A stretch of 64,000 bases of DNA from Bacteroidales bacterium (lineage in GTDB: Bacteria; Bacteroidota; Bacteroidia; Bacteroidales; B18-G4). The notes beneath the pieces are model-generated. The model did not search any database. It was not told where the DNA came from and was given only the letters and a program-made list of their open reading frames with translations. The stretch covers positions 10,444-74,443 of the forward strand of contig JAGYLD010000003.1 in assembly GCA_018401355.1 (NCBI GenBank), given 5' to 3'. Positions 13,971 through 54,033 of this stretch are shown here, piece after piece. Position 1 is the stretch's first letter, and every line of letters starts with the position of its first letter. The translations under genes and the position numbers were made by a program.

Positions 13971-13982
13971 TTTTTTAATAAT

Positions 13983-15828: not shown

Positions 15829-15890
15829 CAGCCAAGTACTAATGAATAGACAATTTGATTTAATGGAGGTTGTCTGAAAAACCATAAAAG

Positions 15891-15924
15891 AAAAAGCATC
15901 CTGTGTTTTTTCAAGATGCTTTTT
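15891..15924 (-). terminator. Hairpin separating the two sigma cassettes
   Basis: AAAAAGCATC-(14 nt)-GATGCTTTTT is a 10-bp inverted repeat flanked by A/T runs. It begins 17 nt downstream (minus strand) of the 15942 stop of the cassette A cargo gene. Confidence 0.5.
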
Positions 15925-15941
15925 CCGGTATTATTGGATTT

Positions 15942-17591: not shown

Positions 17592-17601
17592 AATCCTTCA
17601 T

Positions 17602-24243: not shown

Positions 24244-24246
24244 CGA

Positions 24247-31435: not shown

Positions 31436-33020
31436 TCAGAATCCATTCAGTTCCATCGTAACCGTTGGTATCAACAACAGAAATCCAAGGATCATGAGGA
31501 TGATCATCAAGGGTGTGATCCATTTGACCCATTTTTCATAGGGTATCTTGGCCACTCCCAAAACACCCATCAGCACTCCGGAGGTAGGTGTGATCATATT
31601 TGTAAAGCCATCCCCGAACTGAAATGCCATGACGGTAGCCTGTCTTGATATGTTGATCAGGTCGGAAAACGGTGCCATAATGGGCATGGTTAAGGCGGCT
31701 TTCGCAGATCCTGAAGGTATGATAATGTTTATGATGGTTTGTATAATGTACATAATACCAATAGAGGCAACCTGTCCCAGATCATTCATCGACTTAGAGA
31801 GCCCATAGAGGATGGTATCAATAACTTTCCCATCTTCCAGTATCACAATAATACCACCAGCTAATCCAACGATGATGGCTGCCGAGAGGATATCTTTAAC
31901 ACCTTCCATAAAAAGTTTGGTGATCTTGTCAGGATTATAATTCATGGCAATACCGGACAGAATGCCCATAGCAAAAAATAGTGTGGCAATTTCCATGATG
32001 TACCAGCCAGGCCCATAACACCAACGATCAGGAAGTAGATAGCAATAATGACAGTACAAAAAAGTGAACTGATTTTCTTAAAGAAAAGATGCCGGTAACT
32101 GCAAAAAGAAAGGCTGATACAGGTACCATGGGCAGGCTTGAAGATGCATTACCAACTTTCATTTCCGTCATTGGATAAATGAAAGAAAATATGATCAGGG
32201 CTGCTTCTATTAAGCCAAAGGCGATCCAACCTGAAATAGGTGTGTGGTAGACAATATTGTTTACATCTCCGCCATCGCGCTGTCTCCAGTATTCATCTTC
32301 CTTATAAACAGGTGATTTTTCAGGATGTTTTTTAACTTTTCCGGCATAGCGAAGAATAAAAAACATACCAACAAAATTGATGATCAACCAACAGATAAAC
32401 CTGTATTCAATTCCGGAGAAGAGCGGTATTTCTGCTATTCCCTGTGCGATACCGATGGTAAATGGGTTCAGGATTGCACCGGCAAATCCCAGGCCAGCGG
32501 CAACAAAAACCAGGGACACGCCTGTTATGGAATCATAGCCCATGGAGATGGCAAGTGGCACCAGTATTATGATAAATGCTATTGTTTCTTCACTCATTCC
32601 GAAAATAGCTCCAAAAGCGCTAAACATAAGCATTATGAGTATCATCACGATGTTATCAACTCCTACCTTTCTCAGGAAGCGGTTTTTTTCCAGTTTTCTG
32701 GTAAATCCAAGGAAAGAAAAGATCCCGACATCAATGGCTTTGCTGGCGTTCAGGATCCAGAAGGCTCCGCCAATCATAAGTATGAAAATGATGATCCCGG
32801 ATTGCCGGACAAATCCTTTGAAAAGTGCAGCGAATACTTCCCACGTTTGTGCCTGGCTTTCAACATAGTGAAAAACCATTTCTTTATGTTCCTGTCCATC
32901 TTTGACTATTGTTTTTTCCTCATATTCTCCTCCTGGAATAATCCATGTCAGGACAGCAGCCATTACAATAATATAGAAAACGATTACATAAGTATGGGGT
33001 ATCTTATTGATCTTTAGCAT
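31436..33020 (-). pseudogene. YfcC-family (DcuC/AbgT-like) transporter interrupted by closely spaced frameshifts
   Basis: ORFs 32028..33020 (330 aa) and 31436..32059 (207 aa) are the N- and C-terminal parts of one YfcC-like protein: IPHTYVIVFYIIVMAAVLTW, MIGGAFWIL, GMSEETIAFIIILVPL, then SGSAKAALTMPIMAP and FQFGDGFTNMITPTSG. The third frame between them reads TVIIAIYFLIVGVMGLAG. That matches the expected TM helix before GWYIMEIATLFF. Confidence 0.7.
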
Positions 33021-36659: not shown

Positions 36660-37055
36660 TTATTTGAAATATGATCTTATCATGGAGGCAAGGTTCTTGA
36701 ATTCGTCTTCTGACATTTTCAGTTTAGGTTTTCTAAAGTCAATGTCATAAACTGTGTTAATTGGGACCACATGAACATGAGCATGGGGTACTTCAAGGCC
36801 CAGGACTGTGATTCCAATTCGTTTGCATTCCACTACTTTTTCAACAGCTTTGGCCACTCTTTTTGAAAACAGGAACAATCCCTGGTAAAGCTTGTCATCA
36901 ATATCGAATATGTAATCGATCTCTTTTTTAGGTATTACAAGGGTATGTCCTTTGGCGATAGGATATATATCCAGGAAGGCGAAGTAATTTGCATCTTCGG
37001 CAATTTTATAGGAAGGTATTTCACCCTGAATTATTTTTGAAAAAATGCTTGCCAT
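36660..37055 (-). CDS. HIT (histidine triad) family nucleotide hydrolase/transferase
   Basis: 131-aa ORF. It begins IFSKIIQGEIPSYKI and carries the histidine triad HAHVHVVP. Confidence 0.85.
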   Translation of the reverse strand: MASIFSKIIQGEIPSYKIAEDANYFAFLDIYPIAKGHTLVIPKKEIDYIFDIDDKLYQGLFLFSKRVAKAVEKVVECKRIGITVLGLEVPHAHVHVVPINTVYDIDFRKPKLKMSEDEFKNLASMIRSYFK

Positions 37056-37066
37056 GATATTTCAAT

Positions 37067-37540
37067 TTATCTTGATACTTCAATTATTTCGAAAGTGATC
37101 TTACCGGCAGGAACTTCGATTTCCACTTTGTTACCAACCTTTTTACCAAGCAATCCTTTTGCAATAGGTGAAGATACGGAAAGCTTACCATTTTTTAAAT
37201 CAGCTTCTTTTTCGGGGGTAATGGTGTATGACATTACTGCTCCATTTTTCAGGTTTTTGATTTTGACCTGTGAAAGGAGCAGGACTTTGGTTGTATCCAT
37301 TTTTGATTCATCCAGGATACGTGCTACGCTAATTTCTTCCTGGAGCTTGGCAATTTTTGCTTCCAGCAGTCCCTGCGCTTCTTTTGCAGCGTCATATTCA
37401 GCATTTTCAGACAAATCGCCTTTGTCTCTTGCTTCAGCAATTTGTTGAGATATGGCCGGACGTTCAACACTGATCATTTTCTCCAGTTCATATTTTAGTT
37501 TCTGAAGACCTTCCTTTGTATAATACTTGGTTTTTGCCAT
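37067..37540 (-). CDS. greA: Transcription elongation factor GreA
   Basis: 157-aa ORF. The N-terminal coiled-coil carries DLSENAEYDAAKE (the conserved acidic tip). The C-terminal globular domain carries SPIAKGLLGKKVGN. Confidence 0.9.
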   Translation of the reverse strand: MAKTKYYTKEGLQKLKYELEKMISVERPAISQQIAEARDKGDLSENAEYDAAKEAQGLLEAKIAKLQEEISVARILDESKMDTTKVLLLSQVKIKNLKNGAVMSYTITPEKEADLKNGKLSVSSPIAKGLLGKKVGNKVEIEVPAGKITFEIIEVSR

Positions 37541-37575
37541 TTTTCATACGATTGTTAACTGATATTATAATAAAT

Positions 37576-37601
37576 GAAGACCCTCCTCTCAAAGGGCCTT
37601 C
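37576..37601 (-). terminator. Hairpin downstream of the PorV-family gene
   Basis: GAAGACCC-(10 nt)-GGGCCTTC pairs 7 of 8 positions. A second short hairpin, TTAAGC-gaacg-GCTTAA (37631..37647), directly abuts the stop codon. Both lie between the 37648 stop and the greA start. Confidence 0.35.
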
Positions 37602-37647
37602 AGAAAATATGCAATAATTTTATTATCTGTTTAAGCGAACGGCTTAA

Positions 37648-38706
37648 TTAGAGGTTAAACCGTATGCCAATAGAGTGTGTTCCATCAAACGGATCAGTTG
37701 CTCTGTATGAGTAATCGACAGAGAATGTTGTTCCGCTCTCTTTGCTCAGTGGCACCTGGACTGTTGCACCGAAGCTGGGTCCGGTATGGACATTTGTTCT
37801 GTCTGCCTTATCGGTTATGCCATCTTCATATGCATATCCACCTCTGAGCATAAGATAATCTTTTAAGCTATATTCCAAACCTCCAATAAATTGGTCTTTT
37901 CCAAAGGAGTTTGACCTGAAAGTACCTGCCAGGGTAATTCTGTGGATCTCTGCAAAATTAAAATCATAGGAAGCTCCTACATCAAGGGCAGCAGGCAACT
38001 CAAATTGTGATGAAGGCATATACATTGAGGTAGAGAATTCATCGTTTGGCAGGAATGTTTTCTCCAGGAGTCCGTCTCCAGAAAATTTCATTCTTGGGCC
38101 GATGTTTTTCAAGGCGATACCAAACTTGATCTGTTCCATTGCGCCTGTTACATATTGAATACCAGCATCTATAGCAATTCCTTGAGCATTGGCATCAGAA
38201 ATTGATTCTGAAATGATTTTAATATTAATACCGGCATAAATACTGTTTGAAAACGCTTTGGCATAAGTAATACCAACATTGAGAAGGCTGGGTTTAAAAG
38301 TACCTATGCCTCCATCCGGGTTATCGGGTGTTGTTACTTCAATCTCACCGAAGCTCATTGATACGACATTCAAACCAAGTACACCGGATTCTCCGACCCG
38401 TTGGGAGAACCCAAAGGCAAACATATTTATATCTGATCCTTTCAGGTAAGTGGTATGAGAAAATATGAATTCTGTTTTTGGTGTAAATGCTACACCTGCA
38501 GGATTCACGAACATACCTTCCAGACCACGCACACCAGCAGTATTCACACTTCCCCATCCAGAGCTTCGTGCCCAGGGGTTGATCAGGAGCTCAGATGCTC
38601 CGGCTTGTCCTGACCTGTCTTTATTTCCTGCATAGCTTTCAAGCACGGCAATCGAGAGAAAACCTATAATAACTAGTGGAATCAGGTATTTATAAAAATT
38701 CTTCAT
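37648..38706 (-). CDS. PorV/PorQ-family outer membrane beta-barrel protein (T9SS shuttle-protein paralog)
   Basis: 352-aa ORF with a signal peptide. SGQAGASELLINPWARSSGWGSVNTAGVRGLEGMFVNPAGVAF fits the N-terminal PorV-family pattern (G.aGa.fL.i.p.AR..gmG.......d....f.NPA). It ends IGIRFNL. It is shorter than the ~390-400 aa I remember for canonical PorV. Confidence 0.65.
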   Translation of the reverse strand: MKNFYKYLIPLVIIGFLSIAVLESYAGNKDRSGQAGASELLINPWARSSGWGSVNTAGVRGLEGMFVNPAGVAFTPKTEFIFSHTTYLKGSDINMFAFGFSQRVGESGVLGLNVVSMSFGEIEVTTPDNPDGGIGTFKPSLLNVGITYAKAFSNSIYAGINIKIISESISDANAQGIAIDAGIQYVTGAMEQIKFGIALKNIGPRMKFSGDGLLEKTFLPNDEFSTSMYMPSSQFELPAALDVGASYDFNFAEIHRITLAGTFRSNSFGKDQFIGGLEYSLKDYLMLRGGYAYEDGITDKADRTNVHTGPSFGATVQVPLSKESGTTFSVDYSYRATDPFDGTHSIGIRFNL

Positions 38707-38753
38707 GCTTGTATTTTTTATGTTATTAAACTTTTATCATTTATGGTTTCACA

Positions 38754-41700
38754 TTAGAATACATTCAAATCTGGAGGTCTAACGACGCCGAACCATTTAA
38801 GCACCCTTTCTCCCTCATTGGACTTTACATGTATAATATAAATTCCACTTGAAATAGGAATGCCTGCGAAGTTCTTTAAATCCCAATCCAGATAAGTAGA
38901 TGATTCATCCTTGGTATATTGCCTTACAAGTGTACCTCTTACGTTGTAAATGGTAATGGTACATTTCTGAGGCAGGTTTGTAATCTTAACCCTGTTGTCA
39001 AGTGCATTATTCTCATATGAAGCGTATGCATAATATGGATTTGGAACAACATTGATAAGATCAAGGTCAGTTTCGGCCTTGGAAGCACTGTATTCTATGG
39101 TTGAAATGTTTTCTGTGCTAAAAGTGTATACTGGATAATTATCATTCAGGGTGTCTCCATTATCAGAAATGAATGGAGTGGAATAATACCGTTTGTATGG
39201 TTTGATCACTCTGATTTTAAGTTTAGCTTCATTAGAAAGCCATTCTTCATCATTGCTCATTGGCATCCCTATATATGATGTACTTGAATAAATTGCAGTC
39301 AATGTTACGAAAGATGGGAGTGGGATGGGTGCATACTCATTTTTGTAAACCCATTTAATATATTGGCAGCCATCATATGCAGGATAATCAAAAACAAAAT
39401 TTTCATCAATAGATTTACCTTCCATTACAACAGTTCTGTGATCCATTACATAAACATAATGTTTACCTCCAAACAATGGTTTGGAGAGATCAAATTCTCC
39501 ACCTATTTCTTCATAAAGGTTTGATGTAGGATTAAAGAGCATATCCCTTCCATTTTCTCCAACCAGGTATGAATCTTCACCAAAAATGATGTTTAGACGT
39601 TCGCCAGTTTCAAGATTAATTGCATACCCAGGGAACCAACCCATTCCCATAACACTGAGATAATGAGGATCATTGGGGTCATTGCTGGGTATGGTATCTG
39701 TTGGGTCCGCAGGATTCCCATCTTTATCAACAGATGGTGCATGCCGAATCTGGAATTTTTCAACGTTCCCCTGTGAAAGAGTTTTCTCAGGGCACATTTC
39801 AATAACAAGGCTCCTGGTCCATTTGGTCTTATCAGGTGTGAGTACAATATCTACGCTGTGGATATTGTGCAGAGTGTTCTTATTTTTTGAAGCTTTGGTG
39901 GGTGCCGGACCAACACCACTATTTTGTTCATTTGTCATACACAATGCGTATGGCGACCATGTCCCATTTGCTATCTTTTCATAGTCTTCATTTGGGTCCC
40001 ATGCACGACCAGGCATATTCCAGTCGTTGTAATTCAGGTTTTCCTGGTCCTGATAAGAACCAGAGCGGATCCAGTTTTGATTGCTTGAGGGAACATTATT
40101 GTCTTCAACTCCGGAAAGCCATTGTTGGGTGCTATCTTCATATTCTAAAGTAGAATATAATAATCCATTATTAGCTGCAAGGCTGTCTCCGGGTGATAAG
40201 CTTTGTTTAATATTAACAGAAATTCCGAGATCAATAAACAATTGTTCATAGCGTATGTCAATTCGTTTCTCTGATGGATATTCATTATCTGTTTCCAGAT
40301 CAGTAAGAATCCACCTTCCAGTATTAATATCAATGCTATCATTAGGCGGATTTATAATGCTATCGGCGATGAAACGAATTTCATAATTGGCTGCTATAAC
40401 ATTCAATGGATCAATGACTTTTACATCAAGCGGTCCATGACCCTTTTTATAAACTGCATTGTAGGCGATTGGATAATCAGGACTTCCCATTTGATTGATG
40501 GAATCAGCCAAATCTTTTTTCAGGATTTCCTCAACAGTTTTTTCAGTCAATTCCAATGCGTTGCCTCCGTTACCCTGTCCTTGGATTCTGGTAATATTTG
40601 GCCCATCACCATAACCAGATCTGAGTACCTGTCCATTTAGTGTTGGATGAGGAATTGCAGAGTAAGTTTTAATATTACGACGTCCGGCCAGATATGGTTT
40701 TTTCTGTCCATATAAACCATTGAATACACCTGGTTCCTGGCTATAGGGCATATATTCGTTATATGCATAAGCAACTGCAGCGTAATAGTACTGTTTATGG
40801 TTTACGAGTTCACGGCTGGTAGTTGCAAATGCGTCAGTAGTGAGGATAAAGCTATGGCTGATACCATTATCACCACCTTGAACTTCTACCACCGGAACGT
40901 TTCCTCCAATAGATTTATCAGCATAATAATTAACCAGTGTTGTAACACCGTTTTTCTTGTCAAACTGCGCCACCAACCTAACTAAATCAGGATCATCCTT
41001 GCTTTCGAGAGTAACTGTTGCATCTCTTAACTGATAGATCTGGTAACCTTCAAATACATATGTGGAGTCATTTCTCTGGGTTGGATCATTATCATTGGGT
41101 TGTCTGATGGTATTATCATATTCGTTGTATTTTTCGAGATAGTTGTTGGAAGTTTTGGAGTTTGAGATGTAAAATATCAAAGACTGGTTTAACTCAACTA
41201 TTTCAAGATCCGGAGCATCAGGGCCATCAAGCACCTTGAAGCAGTTATCGAAAAGTTTCTGACATTTATCATCCACTACTCTAAGGAGTTCCACAGAAGC
41301 CCATGGTCCTCCGGAAGTGGCACGAGCCCATGGTATACCAACAGTAATATAGTTTACAGCCCCTGGCAAAAGTGTAAATGGTCCTGCCGACTGCATGAAC
41401 CGACGGTCACCGGGGGGGTTATCTGCTTCTTCCTCGGTCCAGTACTTGCCATTTTGGTTATAGCCACCGTTTGGTGGATTGCCTTGTGTACCCCAGTTAC
41501 ATGGATCTGAATCTCCCGGGAACATAAAGTCACAATCAGGACCAACTGCTCCAGATTGCTCGTGCGCATTACCACCATAGCGCATTTTAGTGTTGTCTTT
41601 CCAGATACCGCGGAGGAAATTGTAATATTCAGGTGCTACTTGCGGGTCAGTGCTATAACCAGGACCTGTATTGTTGTGATATACGAAACGTCGCATACCG

Positions 41701-43016
41701 AACCTTTCATCGTCAATAATTCCGTTACCAAAGTTAACGCCATTAATGGCCATTGGATCCCATTCAAAAGGTGAATTGATTATTGAACAATCACCGGTAA
41801 AAGCAGGATTGTCTCTTCCATCAGGGTCAATATATGGTCCCTGAAAGAAGTCAACGCCAATAGCCGGGGGTTGGTCGCCATAAGCTTCTGGTTCACCGGA
41901 ACCGTCAACGGCATTACCATTGTAGCAATAACCCAGCCCCCTGTTAACATCACAACCAATATAGTCGTCCCAGGCATAACCCAGGTCAGTATCTACCCAA
42001 GGTGAAAAGTAGGTTTTTGTTAATGTAAAAGTGGATCTGTTGATGATCTCATAGGAATAGAAAGTCATGTTGTTGATTTCATCATTGGTAGCGAAAGCAA
42101 ATGCCTGCGCCCTGATTTCCATTCCAATGGGTGCTCCTTGGGTTTCTGTATGAGCGTTTCCTTTATCATTGAATATCCACCATAATGTTTGGTCTCCTTT
42201 CAAAACCTGGTCAACAAGCAAGCCTCCTTTAACGATACCCAATGAATCTTCAAATGTTGGTCTGGGTTTGTAATTTGGGTCTCCGGCATAATTTAAGGGA
42301 CAAAGTTCATTAGTAATATCATAATATGGATAATCTCCCTGATTTGGATCATAATCTCCATTTCCGTCTACATCCCTGAATGGAGCAAGGTAATAACTTT
42401 GATCTTTAGCTAAATCACCATGAGCAGGATAATCCAGAATTGATTCAGGGATCTGGTAATTTGGAAATTCTTCAGCCCTGTTATCAGAATTCCACCATGA
42501 AAGGAATTGATCGATCTCGGCCCTGGTGATCAGGAAGTGCTTGTCATAACGTGCACATGTTGCCTCATCAACGGAAGCAGTCCCATCAATGGTCAAAGGT
42601 CCTGGCCAGTAGTCAATTCCTACCTGACGGTATCTTTGGGCTGCAAGTTTAAGCTGGTTATTGATATCAAGCCCACCGATCCATAGTGATCCGGAAAAGA
42701 GAGAAGTAGCAGTTCCTTCTTTAGGAATAAAATATTGGGCACCTATCCCATTGGGGAGATCCCACCACATATCCCCTCCTGTATTAATTCGTGCCCTGAC
42801 GTTGTTTATATCAAGGAACCTAAAGCCTGCTCCTGCTGCACAACCGGCTGCATTTGCTTTAATATTTTGTGTGTTTTTCTGCCCCTTGTCACCTACGAAT
42901 TCTTCTGAATATGAAGTTGACTGAAACAGGAAAAAACAGATGAGTGTGGCAAAAACTAAACGGAATATATTTTTCATAGTCATCATTTTTTGTTTCCAAA
43001 TTTTGCGATTAAACAT
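38754..43016 (-). CDS. Very large (about 1420 aa) secreted protein of unknown function with an atypical T9SS-like C-terminal domain
   Basis: The signal peptide is (M)KNIFRLVFATLICFFLFQSTSYS; alternative ATGs exist down to 42977. No catalytic motif was recognised. There are Asp/Gly/Asn/Pro-rich calcium-site-like stretches (DVDGNGDYDPNQGDYPYYD, WVDTDLGYAWDDYIGCD). The C-terminus reads VVPNPYYAYASYE...CTITIYNVRGTLV...WDLKNFAGIPISSGIYIIHV...KWFGVVRPPDLNVF. Confidence 0.7.
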   Translation of the reverse strand: MFNRKIWKQKMMTMKNIFRLVFATLICFFLFQSTSYSEEFVGDKGQKNTQNIKANAAGCAAGAGFRFLDINNVRARINTGGDMWWDLPNGIGAQYFIPKEGTATSLFSGSLWIGGLDINNQLKLAAQRYRQVGIDYWPGPLTIDGTASVDEATCARYDKHFLITRAEIDQFLSWWNSDNRAEEFPNYQIPESILDYPAHGDLAKDQSYYLAPFRDVDGNGDYDPNQGDYPYYDITNELCPLNYAGDPNYKPRPTFEDSLGIVKGGLLVDQVLKGDQTLWWIFNDKGNAHTETQGAPIGMEIRAQAFAFATNDEINNMTFYSYEIINRSTFTLTKTYFSPWVDTDLGYAWDDYIGCDVNRGLGYCYNGNAVDGSGEPEAYGDQPPAIGVDFFQGPYIDPDGRDNPAFTGDCSIINSPFEWDPMAINGVNFGNGIIDDERFGMRRFVYHNNTGPGYSTDPQVAPEYYNFLRGIWKDNTKMRYGGNAHEQSGAVGPDCDFMFPGDSDPCNWGTQGNPPNGGYNQNGKYWTEEEADNPPGDRRFMQSAGPFTLLPGAVNYITVGIPWARATSGGPWASVELLRVVDDKCQKLFDNCFKVLDGPDAPDLEIVELNQSLIFYISNSKTSNNYLEKYNEYDNTIRQPNDNDPTQRNDSTYVFEGYQIYQLRDATVTLESKDDPDLVRLVAQFDKKNGVTTLVNYYADKSIGGNVPVVEVQGGDNGISHSFILTTDAFATTSRELVNHKQYYYAAVAYAYNEYMPYSQEPGVFNGLYGQKKPYLAGRRNIKTYSAIPHPTLNGQVLRSGYGDGPNITRIQGQGNGGNALELTEKTVEEILKKDLADSINQMGSPDYPIAYNAVYKKGHGPLDVKVIDPLNVIAANYEIRFIADSIINPPNDSIDINTGRWILTDLETDNEYPSEKRIDIRYEQLFIDLGISVNIKQSLSPGDSLAANNGLLYSTLEYEDSTQQWLSGVEDNNVPSSNQNWIRSGSYQDQENLNYNDWNMPGRAWDPNEDYEKIANGTWSPYALCMTNEQNSGVGPAPTKASKNKNTLHNIHSVDIVLTPDKTKWTRSLVIEMCPEKTLSQGNVEKFQIRHAPSVDKDGNPADPTDTIPSNDPNDPHYLSVMGMGWFPGYAINLETGERLNIIFGEDSYLVGENGRDMLFNPTSNLYEEIGGEFDLSKPLFGGKHYVYVMDHRTVVMEGKSIDENFVFDYPAYDGCQYIKWVYKNEYAPIPLPSFVTLTAIYSSTSYIGMPMSNDEEWLSNEAKLKIRVIKPYKRYYSTPFISDNGDTLNDNYPVYTFSTENISTIEYSASKAETDLDLINVVPNPYYAYASYENNALDNRVKITNLPQKCTITIYNVRGTLVRQYTKDESSTYLDWDLKNFAGIPISSGIYIIHVKSNEGERVLKWFGVVRPPDLNVF

Positions 43017-43030
43017 CGGTTGTCGATAGG

Positions 43031-46000
43031 TTAAAAGTTGAAAAGTAATCCAAAACGAATAGTTCTTGGGCTGCTATAATTATAAGGGCTGTTAATAAAG
43101 ATTGAATAAAGATCCCTGAATGATTGTGGATCCAATTGGTTATTTATATCCCTTTGCCATTCTGCAGCAGCAAGATATCCGTCGTCATCCGGGTTTCCGG
43201 TAGCCGGATAAACGTTTAGGACATTTTGTGTATTCAGGACATTATTAATCTGAAAATATACATTAAGGTTTGAAGTTCTTTTATTTTCGCCTTTACCGAG
43301 GGTAATAAAGAAATCTCTGTCTAACCTAAGGTCAACCCTGAACTGCCAGGGCAACCTTGAACCATAATAAGTACCTTTAAGAAGTCTGCTGGCTCCGGAA
43401 AGCTGAGAATAAATATTTCTTGAACGGGTATATGGTGTTCCCGAACCACCGGTAAGTGTAACACTTAGCCCTGTATTTTTCAAAACCTGAACAGGCGGTT
43501 TACCTTCCTTTTTTCTTTTGATTACCGGACCATCATATTCTTTTCCTTCAGTATACCTGTAGTCAATTAAAACGTTGAATTGGTGGCGGCGGTCCCATGC
43601 CAATGGGTTGGTTGTTCTCAGGTTAGGCAGACCGGATGCAACCAAGGCACTTGCTGTTGTAGTGCTTGAACCAGTACCGTCTGCAAATTGAAGTGTATAG
43701 TATGCGTTGACACGGGCATTTTTTGTGCGTCTCAGGTCGTAGTTAATGGTAAGACCCTTGACGGTTCCAAAGTCAATATTGTTATATGAAGTATAATCCT
43801 TTGGATAGGCCCCATTAAAACGATAGATCTGAATATCATCCCTCATTTCTCTATAAAAGACAGAAAATTTCAATGATGATGAATTGTTCAGCTTTTGCTG
43901 AAATCCCAGTTCATAGTCTATTGTTTTCGAGGGTTTAAGGTTGGGATTATTTATTACTCCCTGGATATTATTGAAGAAATAGTAGGTCGAAGGATTTGAT
44001 ATTACATTGGAAGTAGGCCTTTGAGTAAGCACATCATAATGTGCAAAGAAGAGCGCCTCATCCGAGATCGGGAAGGAGAATGAGATACGTGGCATCACAT
44101 TAACCTGCGGCTCGTAATCCTCAAACGCCTCAATTTCAGGTCTTTCGGAATTGGGGTTAATGATATATGGTGAAATACCAGATCCAGCATCCAATGAATT
44201 TGGGTCGAGGATTTCAGTACCCTGAGCGTTATACCAGGTATCTTCATCCCTGAAACCGATAATGGATGTTGGATTAGAAACATTATCAACATAAACCACA
44301 TAGTCGTTCCCAATATTGGATGGGATTTCATAACCTCCCATTTTGTCTGCCAATTCCATACTTGCTGGATCTCCTTTAGTATATGCTCTGTATAAAAGGT
44401 AAGGATCTTTTAGTACTTCCTGGTTTGCATCGAAACGGTCTACACGCACGCCAACATTAAAAATAAGGTCCTTAAAAGCAAATTTATCCTGGATATAACC
44501 AGCCATATATATTGGCTCAAACGCTCCGATAGGCCGGTCATAAACGTCCTTGTCATTCTGACTGGTGGTTTGGTTCCAGAAGTCTGCAAATGTTGATTTA
44601 TCTTTGTTCCTATCCCCGGTGTGGTCATAACCACGATAAAAGACATAAGAGAATCCATCATTCAACAATTCATCGGCACTGAACATGTCAATATCGAATA
44701 AATTTCCGTTGGCATACGCTGTTTTTTTGTTGTTGTTTTCATCGAAATAAGTGATGGAGTTGGAATTAAAGTCGTAAGAGTTTATTACGATAAAATCAGT
44801 TCCGTTAACAGGTAATCCCAACTTTTTTCTCAGGTTAATATCAAAAGTCCTTTGCGAAGATTCATCATATTTCCTGTGGTAACGAACGGTATCCATAAAC
44901 TGACCGTCTCTGTATACCAAAATGGGGTCGTCCACATCAAGCTGTGCTATATGGAAGTTGGCCAGGTTGTACATGTGTGTCCAAAGTCCGACAGGTGCAT
45001 AACCATATCCTCTGTCGAAACGTTGTTCATACTGCAACCCAAATTTTATTTCATGGTTTCCAATGTCCATTGCACCGGATGCATTGATTCCCAGCTGTTC
45101 ATTGTCAGAAACATTGTAACCACTAATGATGGTTCCGGGTGCGTTAAACATACCATAAAAGCTGTTTTGCTGTTGTCCGTTAATTTGACCACCATTCAAC
45201 TGGATATCAGATATATTTCTGTGGAATTGATTTTCCGGGTAGAGTTCATAATAGTTTTGAGTAACATTGGAAGTAATGGGATTGAAATCGGCAGGATCAT
45301 ATGTAACCAGTGTATCAAAAATATTATCCATTATGTAAATATTTTCGTAATACTGGCCCCCGATGGAATCTTCACCTAAGCTATAATTGTATGCAAGGTG
45401 TGAATCAAATTTTCCGAGGTAACCATATTTAAACAGATCATCTTTATGATCACCATCCATTGATTCTCCATAAACTTTTGAGTAGTCTGCCTGAATGGAA
45501 TAATAAACGTTTTTCACAAGTGATTTACTGTCTCTATCCGTTGGGAATCTTTGTGTGAAACGACCGAATACCCTCCATGTATAATTGAAGTACAACTGGT
45601 TTTTGTCGTAGTTAAACATTGAACTTCTGAAGTTAAAATTACGTCCTCTGTTATAGTTAAAAGAACCTCCAAGTGTAAGGTTGATGGTTTCAGTGGTTTT
45701 AATATCAAATTTTGCTGAGAGATTGAAGTTATAGTTGGAGGTATTCCGTGTGGTCTTGATAGTTTCAAGATCGCTCAGTCTGGTGAACTCACCACGTTGG
45801 AATGTGCCAAAGCCTTCACCAGCAGGAATGAGCGGATCATTTTCAAGAAGATTGATATAGCTGTCTTTTCCTTTATAAATGTCTATTGAGAAAGGCCGGC
45901 CATCTTCACGGTATACGAAGTCACCAGCGATAAAATAGCCAAACAAAGAACTAATTATCCGGCCATCTTCATCCTTTTTGGAAAATATGGGTCCGTTGAG

Positions 46001-46762
46001 GTTTATTCCGGCTCTGTTGTAACCATAAGCATCCAGGAATTTTGAAGTTTCCAATTCAACGCCGGCGCCAAATTTTCTGGAAGGACCTTTCGTTGTAACG
46101 TCGATAATACCGCCGGTAGCATCTCCGTACTGTGCAGGTGTACCTCCAAGAATCACAGACACCTGCTCAATGGCTGCCTGTGGAAGGTTTGATGATCCTC
46201 TTACACGGATACCGTCAATGTACATAACGGTAGCATCTGAACGGGCACCACGAACGTTACCACGTTCCCCGTCACGTGAAAATACACCACCCACTGTTGT
46301 TGCAACGGCATTGGCCGAGCGGTTAGGCATTTTTGCAATTTCTTCAGAGGTAACAGTACCTCCTGATGTTGTCTGGTCTTTGTCGATAAGAGGTACCTTA
46401 TAATCAACTACCTCAAAAGTTTCCAGGGCAACGGCTGAAGACTCCAAACCAACATCCTGAAAAGCTATTGAATTGGCTTTAATAACAATACCCTTGATCA
46501 TAAGAGGTTTGTAACCAACAAAAGTAGCTTTTAAATCGTATTTACCTGGTGGGATAGGTTTGATGACATAATTGCCGTCAAAATCTGAGGAGGCTCCACC
46601 TACCTGTGTTCCTCCTAGTTCAAGAATAATATTTACAAATGGTAGCGGTTCATTTGTCTGCTTATCAAATACCTTTCCTTTGAGTGAACCAGAAACTTGC
46701 GAGAATACCAACAAACTTGATGTCAGTATGATTCCAAGAGTTAACAGTAAATTTCTTAACAT
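43031..46762 (-). CDS. TonB-dependent receptor-like outer membrane protein (CarboxypepD_reg + plug + oversized barrel), no SusD-like partner
   Basis: 1243-aa ORF. The signal peptide is followed by GSLKGKVFDKQTNEPLPFVNI...GNYVIKPIPPGKYDLKATFVGY (CarboxypepD_reg). The plug reads AVATTVGGV...RGARSDATVMYIDGIRV...IEQVSVILGGTPAQYGDATGGIIDVTTK. The terminal strand is RTIRFGLLFNF. Confidence 0.8.
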   Translation of the reverse strand: MLRNLLLTLGIILTSSLLVFSQVSGSLKGKVFDKQTNEPLPFVNIILELGGTQVGGASSDFDGNYVIKPIPPGKYDLKATFVGYKPLMIKGIVIKANSIAFQDVGLESSAVALETFEVVDYKVPLIDKDQTTSGGTVTSEEIAKMPNRSANAVATTVGGVFSRDGERGNVRGARSDATVMYIDGIRVRGSSNLPQAAIEQVSVILGGTPAQYGDATGGIIDVTTKGPSRKFGAGVELETSKFLDAYGYNRAGINLNGPIFSKKDEDGRIISSLFGYFIAGDFVYREDGRPFSIDIYKGKDSYINLLENDPLIPAGEGFGTFQRGEFTRLSDLETIKTTRNTSNYNFNLSAKFDIKTTETINLTLGGSFNYNRGRNFNFRSSMFNYDKNQLYFNYTWRVFGRFTQRFPTDRDSKSLVKNVYYSIQADYSKVYGESMDGDHKDDLFKYGYLGKFDSHLAYNYSLGEDSIGGQYYENIYIMDNIFDTLVTYDPADFNPITSNVTQNYYELYPENQFHRNISDIQLNGGQINGQQQNSFYGMFNAPGTIISGYNVSDNEQLGINASGAMDIGNHEIKFGLQYEQRFDRGYGYAPVGLWTHMYNLANFHIAQLDVDDPILVYRDGQFMDTVRYHRKYDESSQRTFDINLRKKLGLPVNGTDFIVINSYDFNSNSITYFDENNNKKTAYANGNLFDIDMFSADELLNDGFSYVFYRGYDHTGDRNKDKSTFADFWNQTTSQNDKDVYDRPIGAFEPIYMAGYIQDKFAFKDLIFNVGVRVDRFDANQEVLKDPYLLYRAYTKGDPASMELADKMGGYEIPSNIGNDYVVYVDNVSNPTSIIGFRDEDTWYNAQGTEILDPNSLDAGSGISPYIINPNSERPEIEAFEDYEPQVNVMPRISFSFPISDEALFFAHYDVLTQRPTSNVISNPSTYYFFNNIQGVINNPNLKPSKTIDYELGFQQKLNNSSSLKFSVFYREMRDDIQIYRFNGAYPKDYTSYNNIDFGTVKGLTINYDLRRTKNARVNAYYTLQFADGTGSSTTTASALVASGLPNLRTTNPLAWDRRHQFNVLIDYRYTEGKEYDGPVIKRKKEGKPPVQVLKNTGLSVTLTGGSGTPYTRSRNIYSQLSGASRLLKGTYYGSRLPWQFRVDLRLDRDFFITLGKGENKRTSNLNVYFQINNVLNTQNVLNVYPATGNPDDDGYLAAAEWQRDINNQLDPQSFRDLYSIFINSPYNYSSPRTIRFGLLFNF

Positions 46763-46891
46763 ACCATATAATTTTATGTTAGATTATGACATTGTGCATT
46801 AAAAGTCGGTAAAGTTACTAACAAAAAAATGAAAATACCAAACAATATTAACGGTAGATTTAAAAAAAATTAACGTTATCTTAACACATGC

Positions 46892-47368
46892 TTATATGTA
46901 AGGTGTGTCCATAATCGCTTGATAGATCAAAGCCTTCCTAAGGTCAAAGTTGTTATTTCCCTTTTTGCTCTTACCATTAAAAGAACGAATTTTGTTTATT
47001 TTAGAGACTATTTCTTGCTTCTCAATAATATTCTGTTTCAGTATGGAAGTTTCCTTGATTGGATTTACTGCTTTGGTATGATAATTTTTGCCTGTTTTTT
47101 CTACGGAATCAATTCCTAAATCCTTGTACTGGTCTTCAAAATTCTTTTTAAAAGTTTTGGATCTTGGAGCAGGTTCAATGACTTCAATTTTTTTTGGTTC
47201 TTCCTCCATATTCCCAAAAATGTCTTCCAGGATACTTTTGCTACTATCTTCTTCTTGTTCCTGTTGTTGTTCAGCTTTGAGCTGTTTTTCTTTCCGCTTT
47301 TTATTTTGGGAATAAAAGGTGAAAACCAGCCACAACAAACCTAGTAAAATATAAATGAGGTCTTCCAT
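46892..47368 (-). CDS. Hypothetical single-pass membrane protein with highly charged Lys/Glu/Gln-rich tail
   Basis: 158-aa ORF. The N-terminal TM is LIYILLGLLWLVFTFY, followed by KKRKEKQLKAEQQQEQEED... No recognisable domain. Confidence 0.4.
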   Translation of the reverse strand: MEDLIYILLGLLWLVFTFYSQNKKRKEKQLKAEQQQEQEEDSSKSILEDIFGNMEEEPKKIEVIEPAPRSKTFKKNFEDQYKDLGIDSVEKTGKNYHTKAVNPIKETSILKQNIIEKQEIVSKINKIRSFNGKSKKGNNNFDLRKALIYQAIMDTPYI

Positions 47369-47518
47369 AGTTTTGTCAAAATAGACTTTTCAAAAGTAAA
47401 AATATTAAATAATCTTGAAAATAAAAGAAAAAATAAGTTTTCGGTTGATCAAAATCAGTTTACGGTTTATTTATTCTTTCAAATATATAGTGTCAATAAT
47501 GCCTGTAAAACAGTTTGT

Positions 47519-48271
47519 TCATGTGATATTGGCAATAATTTCCAGGATTTTCTCTCTTTTTCTTCGTGATACCGGAACCCTGCTTCCATCTTCTATCATA
47601 ATATATCCACCATCTTCTCTGTTAAAACTTTTAATATACCTGATGTTAACCAAATGAGATTTATGAGGCCTGATAAAATTGTGTTCACTGAGCAACTCCT
47701 CATTTTCCTTAAGGGTTTTTGAAACCAGGATCTTTTTGCCATCATTCAGAAAAAACAAAGTATAATAGTTGTCGGATTCACACCGGACTATTTTATTGAT
47801 CTCAATGATATGGATCTTATCGGAAGTGGAAAGAACGATTTTTTGAGATTCTGCGTCAGTGGTTCTGATGTTATCAAGCAATACCCTGATGTTTTTATTT
47901 ATTTGATTGCCCGATTTTTTCAATTCAACTTTTTTCACGGCGTTGGAAAGCTCTTCGGGATCAATAGGCTTTAATAGATAATCTAAAGCACTGTATTTGA
48001 TGGCCTTTATGGCATAATGATCAAAAGCTGTTGTAAAAATGATCTCAAAATTGATTTTTTCAATGTGTTCAAGAAGCCGAAACCCACTGCCATCAGGCAT
48101 CTGAATATCCAGGAAAATGACATCAGGCTTATTATTTCGAATGGCTTCCAGCCCCGTGTTGAATCCGTCTGCTTCTGCAATGACCTCCACATTTTTACAG
48201 AAACGGGCAAGCAAACCGTTCAGCGTTTCCCTGGATTTTTTCTCATCCTCAATAATTATCGCCTTAATCAT
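47519..48271 (-). CDS. LytTR-family two-component response regulator
   Basis: I prefer the start MIKAIIIEDEKKSRETL (ATG 48271). The REC domain carries the phospho-acceptor context DVIFLDIQMPDGSG. The C-terminal LytTR DNA-binding domain reads IVRCESDNYYTLFFL...FIRPHKSHLVNIRYI. Confidence 0.88.
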   Translation of the reverse strand: MIKAIIIEDEKKSRETLNGLLARFCKNVEVIAEADGFNTGLEAIRNNKPDVIFLDIQMPDGSGFRLLEHIEKINFEIIFTTAFDHYAIKAIKYSALDYLLKPIDPEELSNAVKKVELKKSGNQINKNIRVLLDNIRTTDAESQKIVLSTSDKIHIIEINKIVRCESDNYYTLFFLNDGKKILVSKTLKENEELLSEHNFIRPHKSHLVNIRYIKSFNREDGGYIMIEDGSRVPVSRRKREKILEIIANIT

Positions 48272-48352
48272 TGTTTTCTGATTTGAAATCAAATTTCTGA
48301 AAAAAATCAATTGATATGACAGAGCATTTAGCGGCTGATGAATAAATGCTCA

Positions 48353-51300
48353 TTAGATATCTTCATATATCAGTCTTATTTCCACCCTTGTACCTGTGCC
48401 TTTTCCAAACTCGTTAATAAGATCAACAACTTTAATAGAATATTTATCTTTATGCTGTTTATTCAATAGTTCAAGTCTTTCGCGGGTAATCATCATTCCC
48501 CTGGATTTCCTTTTAATACCAGATATTTCTCTTATCTTCTGAGCTTCTTCACGGCCGATACCATTATCTTCAATGATGCAGTATATGGTATCTTTTTCAA
48601 GTGTCATGTCGATTTTCAACATGCCTTTATGCGGACTGTGAATTAATCCATGCAGAATTGCATTTTCAACATATGGTTGCAGTATCATGGGAGGGATGGC
48701 CATGAATTCCTCATCTATTCTTGGGTCAATATTGATAAAGTATTCAAACTTATCATCAAAACGAAGTCGTTCAATGTCCATAAAGTAAGTAAGGGCTTTG
48801 ACTTCGTCTTTTACCGGAATGATTGATTCTCTGGAGTTTGACAAAATAAGGCGCATTAGCTGGGAGAATTTTGAAAGGTAATGAATGGCCTTATCGGTAT
48901 CATTTGCAATGACAAAACTTTGTATTGCATTGAGGGAGTTAAAAATAAAATGTGGATTCATTTGCAGGCGGAGGGCTCTTTGTTCGATGTCAAAGAGTTG
49001 CTTTTCAATCTCCAGTACCCGCTTTTCAACCTTATGTTTTTTTCTGATAACTTTTATTCTCCTATAGACCAGCGACCACACGACGATGATGACAAACAGC
49101 GTGAAAATAATCCTGAATGACCAAGTGGACCACCATGGTGGAGGTATGATAATGGTAAATTTAATTCCTTCTTCATTCCATACCCCGTCATTATTTGATG
49201 CTTTAACATGAAACTCATAAATGCCTGGTGACACATTTGCATATTCTGCAATTCTTCTGTCTGCATTCCTGAATATCCATTTCTTGTCATAGTTTTTTAG
49301 CATGAATTCATATTTGTTTTTTGAAGGGTTGGAATAATCCAATGCAGAAAACTCAAATGAAAAGAAATTATCCCTGTGATCCAGAGTAATGGTGTCGTTA
49401 TTAGCAATATTTACAGGCTGTACCTCATTGAATTTTTTGAAGCTGGTGATTACCACTTCAGGTGGTTCGTCATTGTATCCGATTTCTTCAGGATAAAATG
49501 AGTTTAAACCATTCATTCCGCCAAAAAACATTTCCCCATCCTGGGCTTTATGGTAGGCTGGTGAATTAAATTCGTTGCTTTGCAGACCGTCTTTTACATC
49601 GTAGTTGATGAATACAGTATCTTCTACAATGAATTTTGAAAGCCCCCAGTTGGTGCTGATCCACAGGTTCCCGCTGTCATCCTCCAAAGTGCAATAAACA
49701 ACATTGTTTGGAAGGCCGTTAATTTCAGTAAATGCTTTGAAGTGTTCTTTTCCGGGATCATACAAATTAAGTCCCCCCCCCATGGTTCCTATCCAATATG
49801 ACCCTTTTTTATCCTGGTATACTGAAAAGATCTTATCAGAGCTGATGCTGGAGGGATCATCGGGGTCATACCTGAACCTTTTAAAGCTGCTGTCGCTTTG
49901 ATTAAATAAGTTTAGGCCGTTGGTAGTACTGATCCACATATTGCCATGTCGGTCTTCATATAGTTGCCAAATCCTGTTGTTGCTCAGGCTTGTGGTGTCT
50001 TTAGGATCATTCTGAAAATTGTAAAAATTGCCGTTATCCGGATTAAATATGCTTAAACCATTGTTGGTGCCTATCCAAAGGTTATGATCATTTGATTCTG
50101 CAATGTACAGCACTCCATCACTGATAAGTGAATTCGTATTTTCAGGATCTTTTACAAAATGTCTGAATCTACCTGTTTGCTTGTCATAGCTGAATACCCC
50201 ATGATTTTCAGTGCCAATCCAGAATATTTCTTTATGATCCTGTTTAATGATCCTGATTTTTTCATTGGCAAGGTCATGTATTCCATCGAAATTATGATGC
50301 AGAAGCCGGTAATGTCCAGTTTCCCTGTCAAGGATATTCAATCCCCTGGCTGTAGCTATCCATATCAATCCTTCAGGATCTTTCCAGATTGAGTAAACAA
50401 TGTTGTTGGAGAGGGTTTGTGGCTCATCAGAAGATCTTGCATACAAGGTAAATTTGCTGGAATTCCTGTCGTATTTATTTACACCTTTAAACGTTCCAAT
50501 CCAAAGATTTCCTGAGCTGTCTTCATAAAAAGAATATATATCATCATTGCTAAGACTGGTGATTTTATTGGTATGGCCATATTCTGTGAATGTTTCCTTT
50601 TCAGGATGGTATTGATTGACTTTGTCTTTAGTGCCAATCCAGAATACTCCAAAGCTATCCTGAAAAAGGCAGGTAACATGGTTATTACTTAAAGAGCCTG
50701 GATCCAGGTATTCATGGAAATAACTTTTTATTTTTTCTGTTTCAGGATTCATCCTGTTCAGTCCATTCCTTGTGGCTATCCATATGTATCCATCACTGGT
50801 TTGATAAACATCATTGATGTTATTATCGGAAATGGTATTTTCTGATGCATTGCTGAAGTATGGTATAAAGGTTTTTGAACCTACCTGATAACAAAAAAGC
50901 CCATGATTGGTAGCAATCCACATGTTGCCTGTCTGGTCCTGTATGATCTTGTTGATCCAATTGCTACGGATACTATCTGCTTTTTCGGAATAAAAATAAT
51001 AATGTGTAAACGACTTGCTGGCTTTATCATACTTATTGAGCCCTTTTGATGTGCAAAACCAGAAATATCCATCTTTATCCCTATAGATTTGATTGATGAA
51101 GTTATTGCTCAGGCTGTTTTTATCCTCAGGATTATTTTTCATAATGGAGATTTTGCCAGAATGCAAATCCAGGATGTTAACTCCATTTTCAGTTCCAATC
51201 CAGATATTGTTTTCGTTATCTTCTATCAGGCTTCTTACAGTGGTGTTGGATAAACCGTTTTGTTTATTGTAAATTTTGAAATCATAGCCGTCATATCTGT

Positions 51301-51541
51301 TCAGACCATCCCAGGTTCCGAACCACATATAACCCTGGTGATCCTGGATTATCGAAAAGACCAGGTTTTGAGAAAGACCTTTTTCATAAATGATATTTTC
51401 TGTGGAGATCCTGTCAAATTTTATGGTGGAAGGTTTTTGGGCGGTTACCTTGAATGTGCAGAGCGCAATAGGCACAAGGAAACCCCACATAAAAGATTTT
51501 CCTGAAAGTGGTATAAAAGAATTCATTTTTCGGATTTCCAT
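48353..51541 (-). CDS. Sensor histidine kinase: periplasmic double beta-propeller (Reg_prop repeats) + Y_Y_Y domain, TM, LytS/YehU-type kinase core
   Basis: 1062-aa ORF. It has more than 12 repeats of the WIGT..GLN.(F/Y) type and Y_Y_Y-like YEFMLKNYDKKW...PGIYEFHVKASN. The TM is FRIIFTLFVIIVVWSLVY. The His_kinase motif is LRLQMNPHFIFNSLNAIQSF, and the ATPase core is IEDNGIGR...GMMITRERLELL. Its ATG overlaps the upstream stop by 1 nt. Confidence 0.88.
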   Translation of the reverse strand: MEIRKMNSFIPLSGKSFMWGFLVPIALCTFKVTAQKPSTIKFDRISTENIIYEKGLSQNLVFSIIQDHQGYMWFGTWDGLNRYDGYDFKIYNKQNGLSNTTVRSLIEDNENNIWIGTENGVNILDLHSGKISIMKNNPEDKNSLSNNFINQIYRDKDGYFWFCTSKGLNKYDKASKSFTHYYFYSEKADSIRSNWINKIIQDQTGNMWIATNHGLFCYQVGSKTFIPYFSNASENTISDNNINDVYQTSDGYIWIATRNGLNRMNPETEKIKSYFHEYLDPGSLSNNHVTCLFQDSFGVFWIGTKDKVNQYHPEKETFTEYGHTNKITSLSNDDIYSFYEDSSGNLWIGTFKGVNKYDRNSSKFTLYARSSDEPQTLSNNIVYSIWKDPEGLIWIATARGLNILDRETGHYRLLHHNFDGIHDLANEKIRIIKQDHKEIFWIGTENHGVFSYDKQTGRFRHFVKDPENTNSLISDGVLYIAESNDHNLWIGTNNGLSIFNPDNGNFYNFQNDPKDTTSLSNNRIWQLYEDRHGNMWISTTNGLNLFNQSDSSFKRFRYDPDDPSSISSDKIFSVYQDKKGSYWIGTMGGGLNLYDPGKEHFKAFTEINGLPNNVVYCTLEDDSGNLWISTNWGLSKFIVEDTVFINYDVKDGLQSNEFNSPAYHKAQDGEMFFGGMNGLNSFYPEEIGYNDEPPEVVITSFKKFNEVQPVNIANNDTITLDHRDNFFSFEFSALDYSNPSKNKYEFMLKNYDKKWIFRNADRRIAEYANVSPGIYEFHVKASNNDGVWNEEGIKFTIIIPPPWWSTWSFRIIFTLFVIIVVWSLVYRRIKVIRKKHKVEKRVLEIEKQLFDIEQRALRLQMNPHFIFNSLNAIQSFVIANDTDKAIHYLSKFSQLMRLILSNSRESIIPVKDEVKALTYFMDIERLRFDDKFEYFINIDPRIDEEFMAIPPMILQPYVENAILHGLIHSPHKGMLKIDMTLEKDTIYCIIEDNGIGREEAQKIREISGIKRKSRGMMITRERLELLNKQHKDKYSIKVVDLINEFGKGTGTRVEIRLIYEDI

Positions 51542-51855
51542 TAGTTGTCTATTCCGGATTTGTTACATTTTTTAAAGCGTCTGAGGAATCCTTTTTTTCG
51601 AACTGTATTATTTCTTTTGCTCATTTTTTTTGTGTTCTTCATCATTTCCTGTGTGTCTTCAGCTTGCATTTCCCAATGTTTATTTTGTTGCTCTTTATAA
51701 TCTTTCCTCGCCTGTTTTTCCATTACCCTGCGTTGTTTTCTCATATACCTTTCTTCACTGGATTTGAAAAATAATCCACAACCACTTTGCAACAGGAGGA
51801 GCAAACTAAGTATAAGAATGTTTTTTTTTGGTCTAAAGTTGAGGTGTCTGGCCAT
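51541..51855 (-). CDS. Small Lys/Arg-rich putative lipoprotein, translationally coupled to the sensor kinase
   Basis: 104-aa ORF with a lipobox-like LLLQSGCG, followed by a strongly basic, helical-looking sequence (KQRRVMEKQARKDYKEQQNKHW...). The stop/start overlap with the kinase gene is TAATG. Confidence 0.45.
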   Translation of the reverse strand: MARHLNFRPKKNILILSLLLLLQSGCGLFFKSSEERYMRKQRRVMEKQARKDYKEQQNKHWEMQAEDTQEMMKNTKKMSKRNNTVRKKGFLRRFKKCNKSGIDN

Positions 51856-51935
51856 TAAATGGTTTTTATAAAGTATTCAAATGTAAAGAATTAAATAATA
51901 TTTATAATTTGTTGATGAAAAACTTTTCACTTTGA

Positions 51936-52400: not shown

Positions 52401-52505
52401 TTTTTTTAAGGGTTCCGCCCAGGTTTCAATAATTTTATAAGTTAGACTTTAGGCTCCGATGTGGCTCGAAAAGCCAAATGTGAAGTACGGGAAGTACATA
52501 CCATT

Positions 52506-53930: not shown

Positions 53931-54033
53931 TTTTCTTGTATTTAAGGCCTGCAAAAGTAATCATTCGTGTAAATATGACAAAGCATGTCCAGGATTATTT
54001 AATGTATCTTTGATACTTCAAACTGGTAGATAC

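Follow-up and report, generated by a model that had tools for sequence, protein, structure and literature searches.

A TonB-dependent transporter, a giant protein with a type-A sorting domain and a PorV-like barrel are encoded side by side across Bacteroidia

The DNA analysed here, a stretch of 64,000 nucleotides from a Bacteroidales genome (GCA_018401355.1, contig JAGYLD010000003.1, positions 10,444 to 74,443; hereafter the window), encodes three consecutive genes on its minus strand: a TonB-dependent transporter (TBDT), a giant secreted protein with a C-terminal domain (CTD) of the kind sorted by a type IX secretion system (T9SS), and an outer membrane barrel of the PorV/PorQ family. These genes keep the same order in nearly all related loci and in distant members of the class. 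We tentatively propose, as a possibility that still leaves considerable doubt, that the giant is delivered by the T9SS, tethered by its cognate barrel and acts as the partner of the TBDT in capture and import. The features of this triad are:

43031-46762, minus strand: TBDT gene, 1243 amino acids
46385-46426, minus strand: TonB-box-like strand of the TBDT, residues 113-126
38754-43016, minus strand: gene of the giant protein, 1420 amino acids as an open reading frame (ORF)
38757-39053, minus strand: CTD of the giant, residues 1322-1420
37648-38706, minus strand: gene of the PorV-like barrel, 352 amino acids

The three genes are probably co-transcribed. The gaps between them are short, 14 nt between the TBDT and the giant (43017-43030) and 47 nt between the giant and the barrel (38707-38753), and a terminator-like hairpin is found solely 3' of the third gene. 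Since the orthologues of the giant begin at Met14 (MKNIF..., position 42977), the protein probably has 1407 rather than 1420 amino acids, and the gap to the TBDT gene would then be 53 nt. A preliminary description of this DNA had given the coordinates, sizes and gaps of the three minus-strand genes exactly, and its domain calls on the TBDT, as well as the C-terminal RFGLLFNF, were reproduced with the Pfam domains above their cut-offs. It had also stated that there is no SusD-like gene, and no such gene appears among the family matches near the triad, be it in the window region or in the listed related loci.

When one genome per species was scanned, at least 583 genomes proved to encode a relative of the giant. 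The best 80 loci of these plus one locus from a complete genome form a close set of 81 loci (50-78% identity), and ten sampled contexts of giant relatives at 37-50% identity form a distant set. The order TBDT-giant-barrel is kept in 79 of the 81 related loci, and downstream of the barrel gene greA is found in 75 of them and a HIT-family gene in 73. The loci without a match to the TBDT (L022, L066) or to the barrel (L049, L081) are cut by the contig end. L008 and L013 were picked up through a second copy of the giant, upstream of which the triad is located. The triad is also present in seven of the ten distant contexts, namely a Flavobacteriales contig where it lies next to PBP2/RodA, a Logan contig, the cultured Luteibaculum oceani (Flavobacteriales), a metagenome-assembled genome of Chitinophagaceae and three more contigs; five of the seven keep greA and four the HIT gene, Flavobacteriales and Chitinophagales included. 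Of the other three contexts, two carry tandem giants and one is at a contig edge. For the distant set, orthology of the barrel and the TBDT was confirmed by phmmer in L084 and L086-L088 and taken from size, position and Pfam matches in L089-L091. Because the order is kept in both close and distant loci, the triad is an ancient, mostly single-locus and vertically inherited unit in at least three orders of Bacteroidia, and the same order in 79 of 81 loci plus distant orders puts the arrangement far beyond chance. The preliminary description had made its proposal depend on the three genes staying together in related genomes, which they very clearly do.

The TBDT starts with a signal peptide and a CarboxypepD_reg N-terminal extension; a plug follows, and then an oversized barrel whose extracellular insertions are conserved. 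It scores 54 bits with CarbopepD_reg_2 (PF13715), 47.3 bits with PF13620, 36.5 bits with the plug model (cut-off 23.9) and 34.5 bits with the barrel model (cut-off 27). When the sequence profile is compared with solved TBDTs the matches are limited to the plug and the N-terminal extension. An AlphaFold2 (AF2) model (predicted local distance difference test, pLDDT, 71.9; predicted template modelling score, pTM, 0.70) was compared with known structures using Foldseek. The best match is FptA (E 5e-20), followed by FpvA, Cir, PqqU, FhuA, BtuB and XusA, with template modelling (TM) scores up to 0.60 when normalised to the target. No SusC-like chain is found among the top 50 Foldseek matches, and no family named SusC/RagA, the signature of which we take to be TIGR04056, is found among the NCBIfam matches at E<=0.01. 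Judged by its model, the TBDT resembles the classical small-ligand transporters and not SusC. A polysaccharide utilization locus of the SusC type is rejected on the lack of a SusC signature in the TBDT and of a SusD-like gene, in agreement with the preliminary description, which held that this is not a canonical SusC/D locus. The architecture instead fits the definition of the Oar subclass, which comprises TBDTs that lack a SusD partner and combine a large barrel with a TonB-box-bearing plug and an N-terminal extension of the CarboxypepD_reg type (PMC6434023).

Residues 113-126 of the TBDT read L-E-T-F-E-V-V-D-Y-K-V-P-L-I, and the consensus of this strand over 63 orthologues is L-E-x-V-E-V-I-D-Y-K-V-P-L-I. 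Column counts in the same orthologues show L113, E117, V/I118, Y121, V123, P124, L125 and I126 to be conserved or invariant. The strand is a putative TonB box by its resemblance to boxes of the DTLVVTA type. The approximately 450 extra residues of the protein are not hypervariable, and conservation is even along the chain. This is as expected for extracellular regions if a conserved partner covers them.

The giant has a Sec signal peptide by inspection (MKNIFRLVFATLICFFLFQSTSYS/EE after Met14), with a start that is conserved in the orthologues and no lipobox at the cleavage site. The best 120 full-length homologues are 59-88% identical. Searched exhaustively, the family comprises 7,298 clusters (50% identity) at E<=1e-3, of which 2,202 reach E<=1e-30. 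Neither the giant nor 20 of its orthologues have a Pfam domain outside the CTD, the combined NCBIfam and Pfam scan of the giant matches only the C-terminus, and its profile finds no relative and no known S-layer protein among the PDB sequences. This agrees with the earlier view of the protein as one with a signal peptide and no recognisable catalytic motif. The AF2 model of residues 38-1237 (pLDDT 84.8, pTM 0.68) is confident and nearly all beta, with several sandwich-like modules and almost no helices. Foldseek against the PDB returns at best E 8e-4, with TM scores of 0.16-0.21 and a root-mean-square deviation of 8-14 Å, to chains of glycoside hydrolase families GH15 (GH15-like), GH116 and GH94; our guess is that these matches reflect the super-sandwich domain common to them. 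Against the viral models of BFVD only generic FN3-like matches are found. The weak glycosidase and phosphorylase matches are not taken as evidence of a glycosidase because the model is almost helix-free. The profile and fold searches suggested in the preliminary description have thus returned the CTD, these weak matches and the FN3-like ones only. Invariant polar residues cluster along the sequence in the last domain of the passenger, in the stretches WFPGYA.N.ETGERLN..FGEDS, NGRDM, FGGKHY and PAYD, and S1149, D1158, H1186 and D1215 may form a Ser/His/Asp site there. As modelled, the giant is a beta-rich multidomain secreted protein with no convincing structural analogue in the PDB.

The CTD of the giant passes TIGR04183, the model of the type-A sorting domain, with 29.2 bits (cut-off 23), which places the T9SS-like CTD of the earlier account in type A. 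With Pfam PF18962 it stays just under the cut-off (24.3 versus 27 bits), and this model is detected at E<0.05 in 16 of 20 orthologues. Its best match is the CTD part of the PorZ model NF052228 (35.9 bits). The window encodes four ordinary type-A CTDs, on an M14 peptidase, two PKD proteins and a BNR protein, all of which are above the PF18962 cut-off (38.8, 50.4, 36.9 and 27.9 bits). In an alignment with these four, the CTD of the giant shows extra residues inserted behind the PNP motif and runs past the usual end with a 9-residue tail (RPPDLNVF). This tail, as KWFGxxRPxDLxx[F/Y], recurs in the giants of Flavobacteriales, of Chitinophagales and of the lineages with tandem giants described below. 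Conservation over 91 orthologues is higher in the CTD (residues 1322-1420; 0.746) than in the passenger (0.653). By these sequence features it is a variant, specialised type-A CTD. As a signal that is cleaved off is not expected to outconserve its passenger or to carry an invariant tail, the CTD may not be simply cut off. It has been reported that the CTDs of PorU and PorZ are retained, with PorV and PorQ respectively holding these proteins, and that a CTD may be shielded from cleavage by its cognate PorV-like barrel (PMC10202324).

Ordinary type-A cargo is encoded in the window by the M14 carboxypeptidase gene (1355-4345, minus strand) and the gene of the BNR-repeat protein (26349-27914, minus strand), which points indirectly to an active T9SS in the organism. 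Ordinary cargo is encoded by other carriers of the triad as well: L087 has an SprB/Por_Secre_tail protein and L088 one with Por_Secre_tail. Neither the window nor the related loci, about 1.7 Mb and some 90 loci in all, contain a T9SS core gene.

The barrel reaches 163.9 bits with the PorV/PorQ family model NF033709 (cut-off 90) over residues 36-352. It stays under the cut-offs of the PorQ equivalog NF033711 (82.7 versus 220), the PorV equivalog NF033710 (78.9 versus 250), PorV2 NF052325 (49.9 versus 325) and the PorP/SprF subfamily TIGR03519 (19.5 versus 90.55). Its profile matches Flavobacterium johnsoniae PorV (6h3i_F) with E 2e-16 and, weakly, TodX and TbuX. It has a signal peptide, the N-terminus AGNKDRSGQAGASELLINPWARSSGWG is nearly invariant, and its gene neighbours that of the giant in 79 of the 81 loci. 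Because of the match to 6h3i_F the protein is a true member of the PorV family, in a subfamily of its own by the curated cut-offs. A jackhmmer search for a second PorV-family gene over 1.66 Mb (the window and the loci) found only orthologues of this barrel. The gene had been called a PorV paralog; membership in the PorV/PorQ family stands, since NF033709 is passed, and the failed equivalog cut-offs set it apart from PorV itself. Together with the four ordinary cargo proteins of the window and those of L087 and L088, the failed PorV equivalog model is indirect evidence that the genome may have a canonical porU-porV pair elsewhere.

Distances between the proteins were compared over 63 genomes, with partial correlations from which the signal of GreA and HIT was removed. 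The mean p-distances of the TBDT (0.414), the passenger of the giant (0.414) and the barrel (0.409) are close to each other, while those of HIT, the CTD of the giant and GreA are 0.387, 0.343 and 0.294. The distances of the TBDT and the passenger correlate with r=0.94 (partial 0.89). For the CTD the correlation is r=0.785 (partial 0.65) with the barrel and r=0.71 (partial 0.51) with its own passenger, and its divergence thus tracks the barrel slightly better than the protein it belongs to. The correlations are compatible with a three-way complex and with contact between the CTD and the barrel.

The surroundings of the triad contain the following features:

46892-47368, minus strand: small membrane-protein gene, 158 amino acids, 129 nt upstream of the TBDT gene
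37575-37602, minus strand: terminator-like hairpin between the barrel gene and greA, from a consensus scan
37067-37540, minus strand: greA, by NCBIfam and Pfam matches
36660-37055, minus strand: HIT-family gene, by NCBIfam and Pfam matches
47519-48310, minus strand: LytTR response regulator, by Pfam matches
48353-51541, minus strand: histidine kinase of the Reg_prop/Y_Y_Y/LytS type, by Pfam matches

The small gene, which looks like noise as an ORF and yet is conserved, was not part of the preliminary description. It has 56 phmmer homologues located immediately upstream of the TBDT gene in related loci, and a hidden Markov model (HMM) built from these matches 62 ORFs; in the loci outside Bacteroidales (Flavobacteriales and Chitinophagales) the HMM does not detect it. 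The protein has no Pfam or NCBIfam match. It is composed of an N-terminal transmembrane helix, a stretch rich in K and R, a variable, acidic and disordered middle part and a conserved C-terminal motif, (F/I)DLRKA(V/I)IYxxILERPY. The positive residues come after the helix, which suggests that most of the protein faces the cytoplasm. The gene is probably the first of the unit. A motif resembling TAnnTTTG, TACTTTTG at 47391-47398, lies 23 nt before its start and is a candidate promoter, of a kind that is easily matched by chance in AT-rich DNA. At the other end the hairpin, a pattern match with a 12-bp stem followed by TTTATTAT, likely marks the end of the transcription unit. The greA and HIT genes are conserved neighbours and are not claimed as functional parts of the module.

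The two-component pair (47519-51541) lies directly upstream in 35 of the 81 loci and is a possible regulator of the cluster. It is missing from L001, where the neighbourhood is otherwise kept, and looks as if it has been inserted into, or lost from, a conserved block of synteny. Compared with L001 and L090, window positions 36660-53954 keep their synteny over large distances; the block includes an S-adenosylhomocysteine hydrolase gene upstream, and greA, the HIT gene and genes of a 633-amino-acid protein and a C69 peptidase downstream. The kinase also aligns in six stretches with the PorZ model NF052228 (150 bits, below the cut-off), which is attributed to common beta-propeller repeats and not to a role in the T9SS.

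Elsewhere in the window a three-gene module is found in two tandem copies (12651-19391, minus strand). It contains sigma factors of the extracytoplasmic function type (18855-19391 and 15256-15885), unannotated proteins of about 420 amino acids that are candidate anti-sigma factors (17602-18858 and 13983-15263), and proteins with PKD, CarboxypepD_reg and T9SS CTD domains (15942-17591 and 12651-13970). A C4-dicarboxylate carrier gene of the DcuC type (31436-33020, minus strand) is split into two overlapping ORFs, of which 32028-33020 covers profile positions 2-246 and 31436-32059 positions 275-458; a frameshift is the likely cause, reflecting either a pseudogene or a sequencing error. An efflux operon of the resistance-nodulation-division type is found at 19694-25593.

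In the mechanism we tentatively propose for the triad, the giant would be exported by Sec and then, by means of its CTD, through the T9SS. The CTD would remain uncut and bound to the adjacent PorV/PorQ-family barrel, as PorZ is on PorQ and PorU on PorV, so that the giant would be permanently fixed to the cell surface. The tethered giant would form a stable complex with the TBDT, energised through its TonB box. The likeliest role of such a complex would be that the giant captures or processes a substrate which the TBDT then imports.

A dedicated pairing of the giant with the barrel as its anchor is plausible because the CTD is conserved and specialised and tracks the barrel, in analogy to PorQ-PorZ and PorV-PorU. 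In these two pairs of Porphyromonas gingivalis a barrel of the 14-strand type from the same PorV/PorQ family is likewise combined with a large CTD protein, which the retained CTD holds at the surface (PMC10202324). The present barrel differs in that it fails both equivalog models, and the giant in that it has neither a C25 peptidase nor the propeller of PorZ; a TBDT is co-encoded, and retention of the CTD is in this case what we infer. The barrel had earlier been suggested to be a dedicated shuttle or anchor; the synteny, the distinct paralogue and the special CTD fit this, and the pairing stays plausible on sequence and analogy. The model invoked for it, the type-B pair of SprB and SprF, does not hold. 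In Flavobacterium johnsoniae a dedicated gene of a PorV-like barrel (SprF/PorP) is paired with the gene of a giant cargo protein (PMC10202324), but the CTD here is type A and not B, the barrel scores 19.5 versus 90.55 bits with the PorP/SprF model, and its gene lies downstream of the cargo gene. Such a pair is rejected, by the type of the CTD as well as by the score of the barrel.

For the other half of the proposal the closest known systems are SusC/SusD, BtuB/BtuG and XusA/XusB, where a TonB-dependent barrel is also co-encoded with an extracellular partner, and XusA is among the fold matches of the TBDT. BtuBG and XusAB form stable complexes (PMC10404256, PMC13142918). In these systems the partners are lipoproteins, whereas the giant has a Sec signal peptide and a T9SS CTD; in addition, the present TBDT is not of the SusC/RagA family, and the unit contains a third component, the second barrel. 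A dedicated PorV-family barrel for one CTD protein and a TBDT with a surface partner are thus both already known. For the combination of the two principles, for a T9SS-delivered partner, for the family of the giant and for the subfamily of the barrel no description was found in the literature searched. The wider idea, that the triad is a third way to equip a TBDT beside surface lipoproteins and soluble scavengers, an ancestral three-protein machine built around the giant in the outer membrane of much of the Bacteroidia, is rather unlikely.

Several points weigh against this proposal. What the data show are the gene order with its deep conservation, the family memberships, the fold of the TBDT and the peculiarities of the CTD; the retention of the CTD, its pairing with the barrel, the contact between giant and TBDT, and the direction and nature of the transport are all steps that we infer. 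The conservation of the CTD was compared with that of its own passenger, and its tail with the four ordinary CTDs of the window, and both are suggestive of retention only. The distance correlations are inflated by shared ancestry and protein length, and the excess for the CTD and the barrel is small. The model of the giant gave no binding or catalytic lead in the fold searches against the PDB and BFVD, and the TBDT resembles the classical small-ligand transporters; the capture-and-import machine of the preliminary description is conjectural. Conservation at a housekeeping rate and linkage to greA suit a core role in the envelope equally well. Finally, two of the ten distant contexts (L082, L083) contain tandem pairs of giants with neither partner nearby.

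The last two points lead to the best of the alternatives, which is nevertheless unlikely, namely that the triad is a core module of the envelope or of a surface structure. The giant would then be a coat, an S-layer-like array or an adhesin mounted on the PorV-like barrel, and the TBDT-like protein a second anchor or a TonB-powered remodelling element. The conservation is evenly spread, extracellular parts included, the locus is single, vertically inherited and linked to greA and HIT across three orders, and the passenger is beta-rich with FN3-like modules and no enzyme signature. Giants also duplicate repeatedly and in a lineage-specific manner (L006, L007, L008, L013, L014, L077 and L089, besides the two pairs that lack a TBDT). 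In several genomes a second copy is located behind greA or behind the barrel gene and shares 62-76% identity with the first, and the tandem giants of the two distant lineages without TBDT and barrel are 55-70% identical to each other. These arrangements recall the tandem genes of the T9SS-secreted S-layer proteins TfsA and TfsB of Tannerella. However, surface arrays usually evolve fast, which the giant does not, the PDB sequence profile search gave no homology to known S-layer proteins, and the conserved plug and the TonB-box-like strand favour real TonB-coupled transport.

Another suggestion, with a distinctly small chance of being right, is an accessory module for sorting or attachment in the T9SS, where giant and barrel form a third pair like PorU-PorV and PorZ-PorQ. 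The pair would process, modify or attach a subset of cargo or a surface glycolipid, with the TBDT bringing in or taking away some component. In favour, the gene of a large CTD protein is followed by that of a PorV-family barrel, as in porU-porV; among the models matched by the CTD, the CTD part of PorZ gives the highest score; the barrel stands at equal distance from PorQ and PorV; and the invariant polar residues E1147, S1149, D1158, H1186 and D1215 might make up an active site. NCBIfam has a model, PorV2, for a putative second sorting-system barrel, which makes paralogous sorting systems imaginable, but the present barrel is far from the PorV2 cut-off (49.9 versus 325). The giant, moreover, has no match to peptidase C25 or the propeller, T9SS core genes were not found in the approximately 90 loci, and we know of no role for a TBDT in the T9SS.

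It is improbable, and a little more so, that the giant is an ordinary T9SS cargo that is released, with the barrel as a paralogous shuttle or FadL-like channel and the genes being co-regulated without forming a complex. The CTD is indeed type A by TIGR04183 and PF18962 is detectable, below the cut-off, in 16 of 20 members; FadL-family barrels carry hydrophobic substrates, which the weak TodX and TbuX matches of the barrel bring to mind, and 35 of the 81 loci have a two-component system upstream. A cleaved domain, however, is unlikely to outconserve the passenger or to keep an invariant extra tail, and near-perfect co-inheritance at equal rates across orders exceeds what co-regulation usually keeps.

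Oar of Myxococcus xanthus, with a length of about 1061 amino acids, is approximately 180 residues shorter than the TBDT and acts in protein export; that the TBDT in the same manner exports or assembles the giant or another substrate across the outer membrane is highly improbable. The N-terminal layout does match (CarboxypepD_reg extension and plug with TonB box, followed by a large barrel and no SusD), but the likeness lies in common domains, the giant already has a T9SS signal, and export by TBDTs is to our knowledge known from one case only.

The family of the giant is among the larger unannotated families that we have seen, with 7,298 clusters at 50% identity and at least 583 species genomes, and its genes accompany those of a TBDT and a PorV-like barrel in Bacteroidales, Flavobacteriales and Chitinophagales alike. 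The cultured carrier Luteibaculum oceani makes experiments possible, and with the triad the question how some CTDs avoid being cleaved can be tested on a concrete example. If the proposed pairing is true, the role of the PorV family would widen from shuttles and scaffolds of the attachment complex to permanent anchors of transporter partners, and the T9SS would build machines for nutrient uptake or for the envelope, beyond the delivery of enzymes and adhesins.

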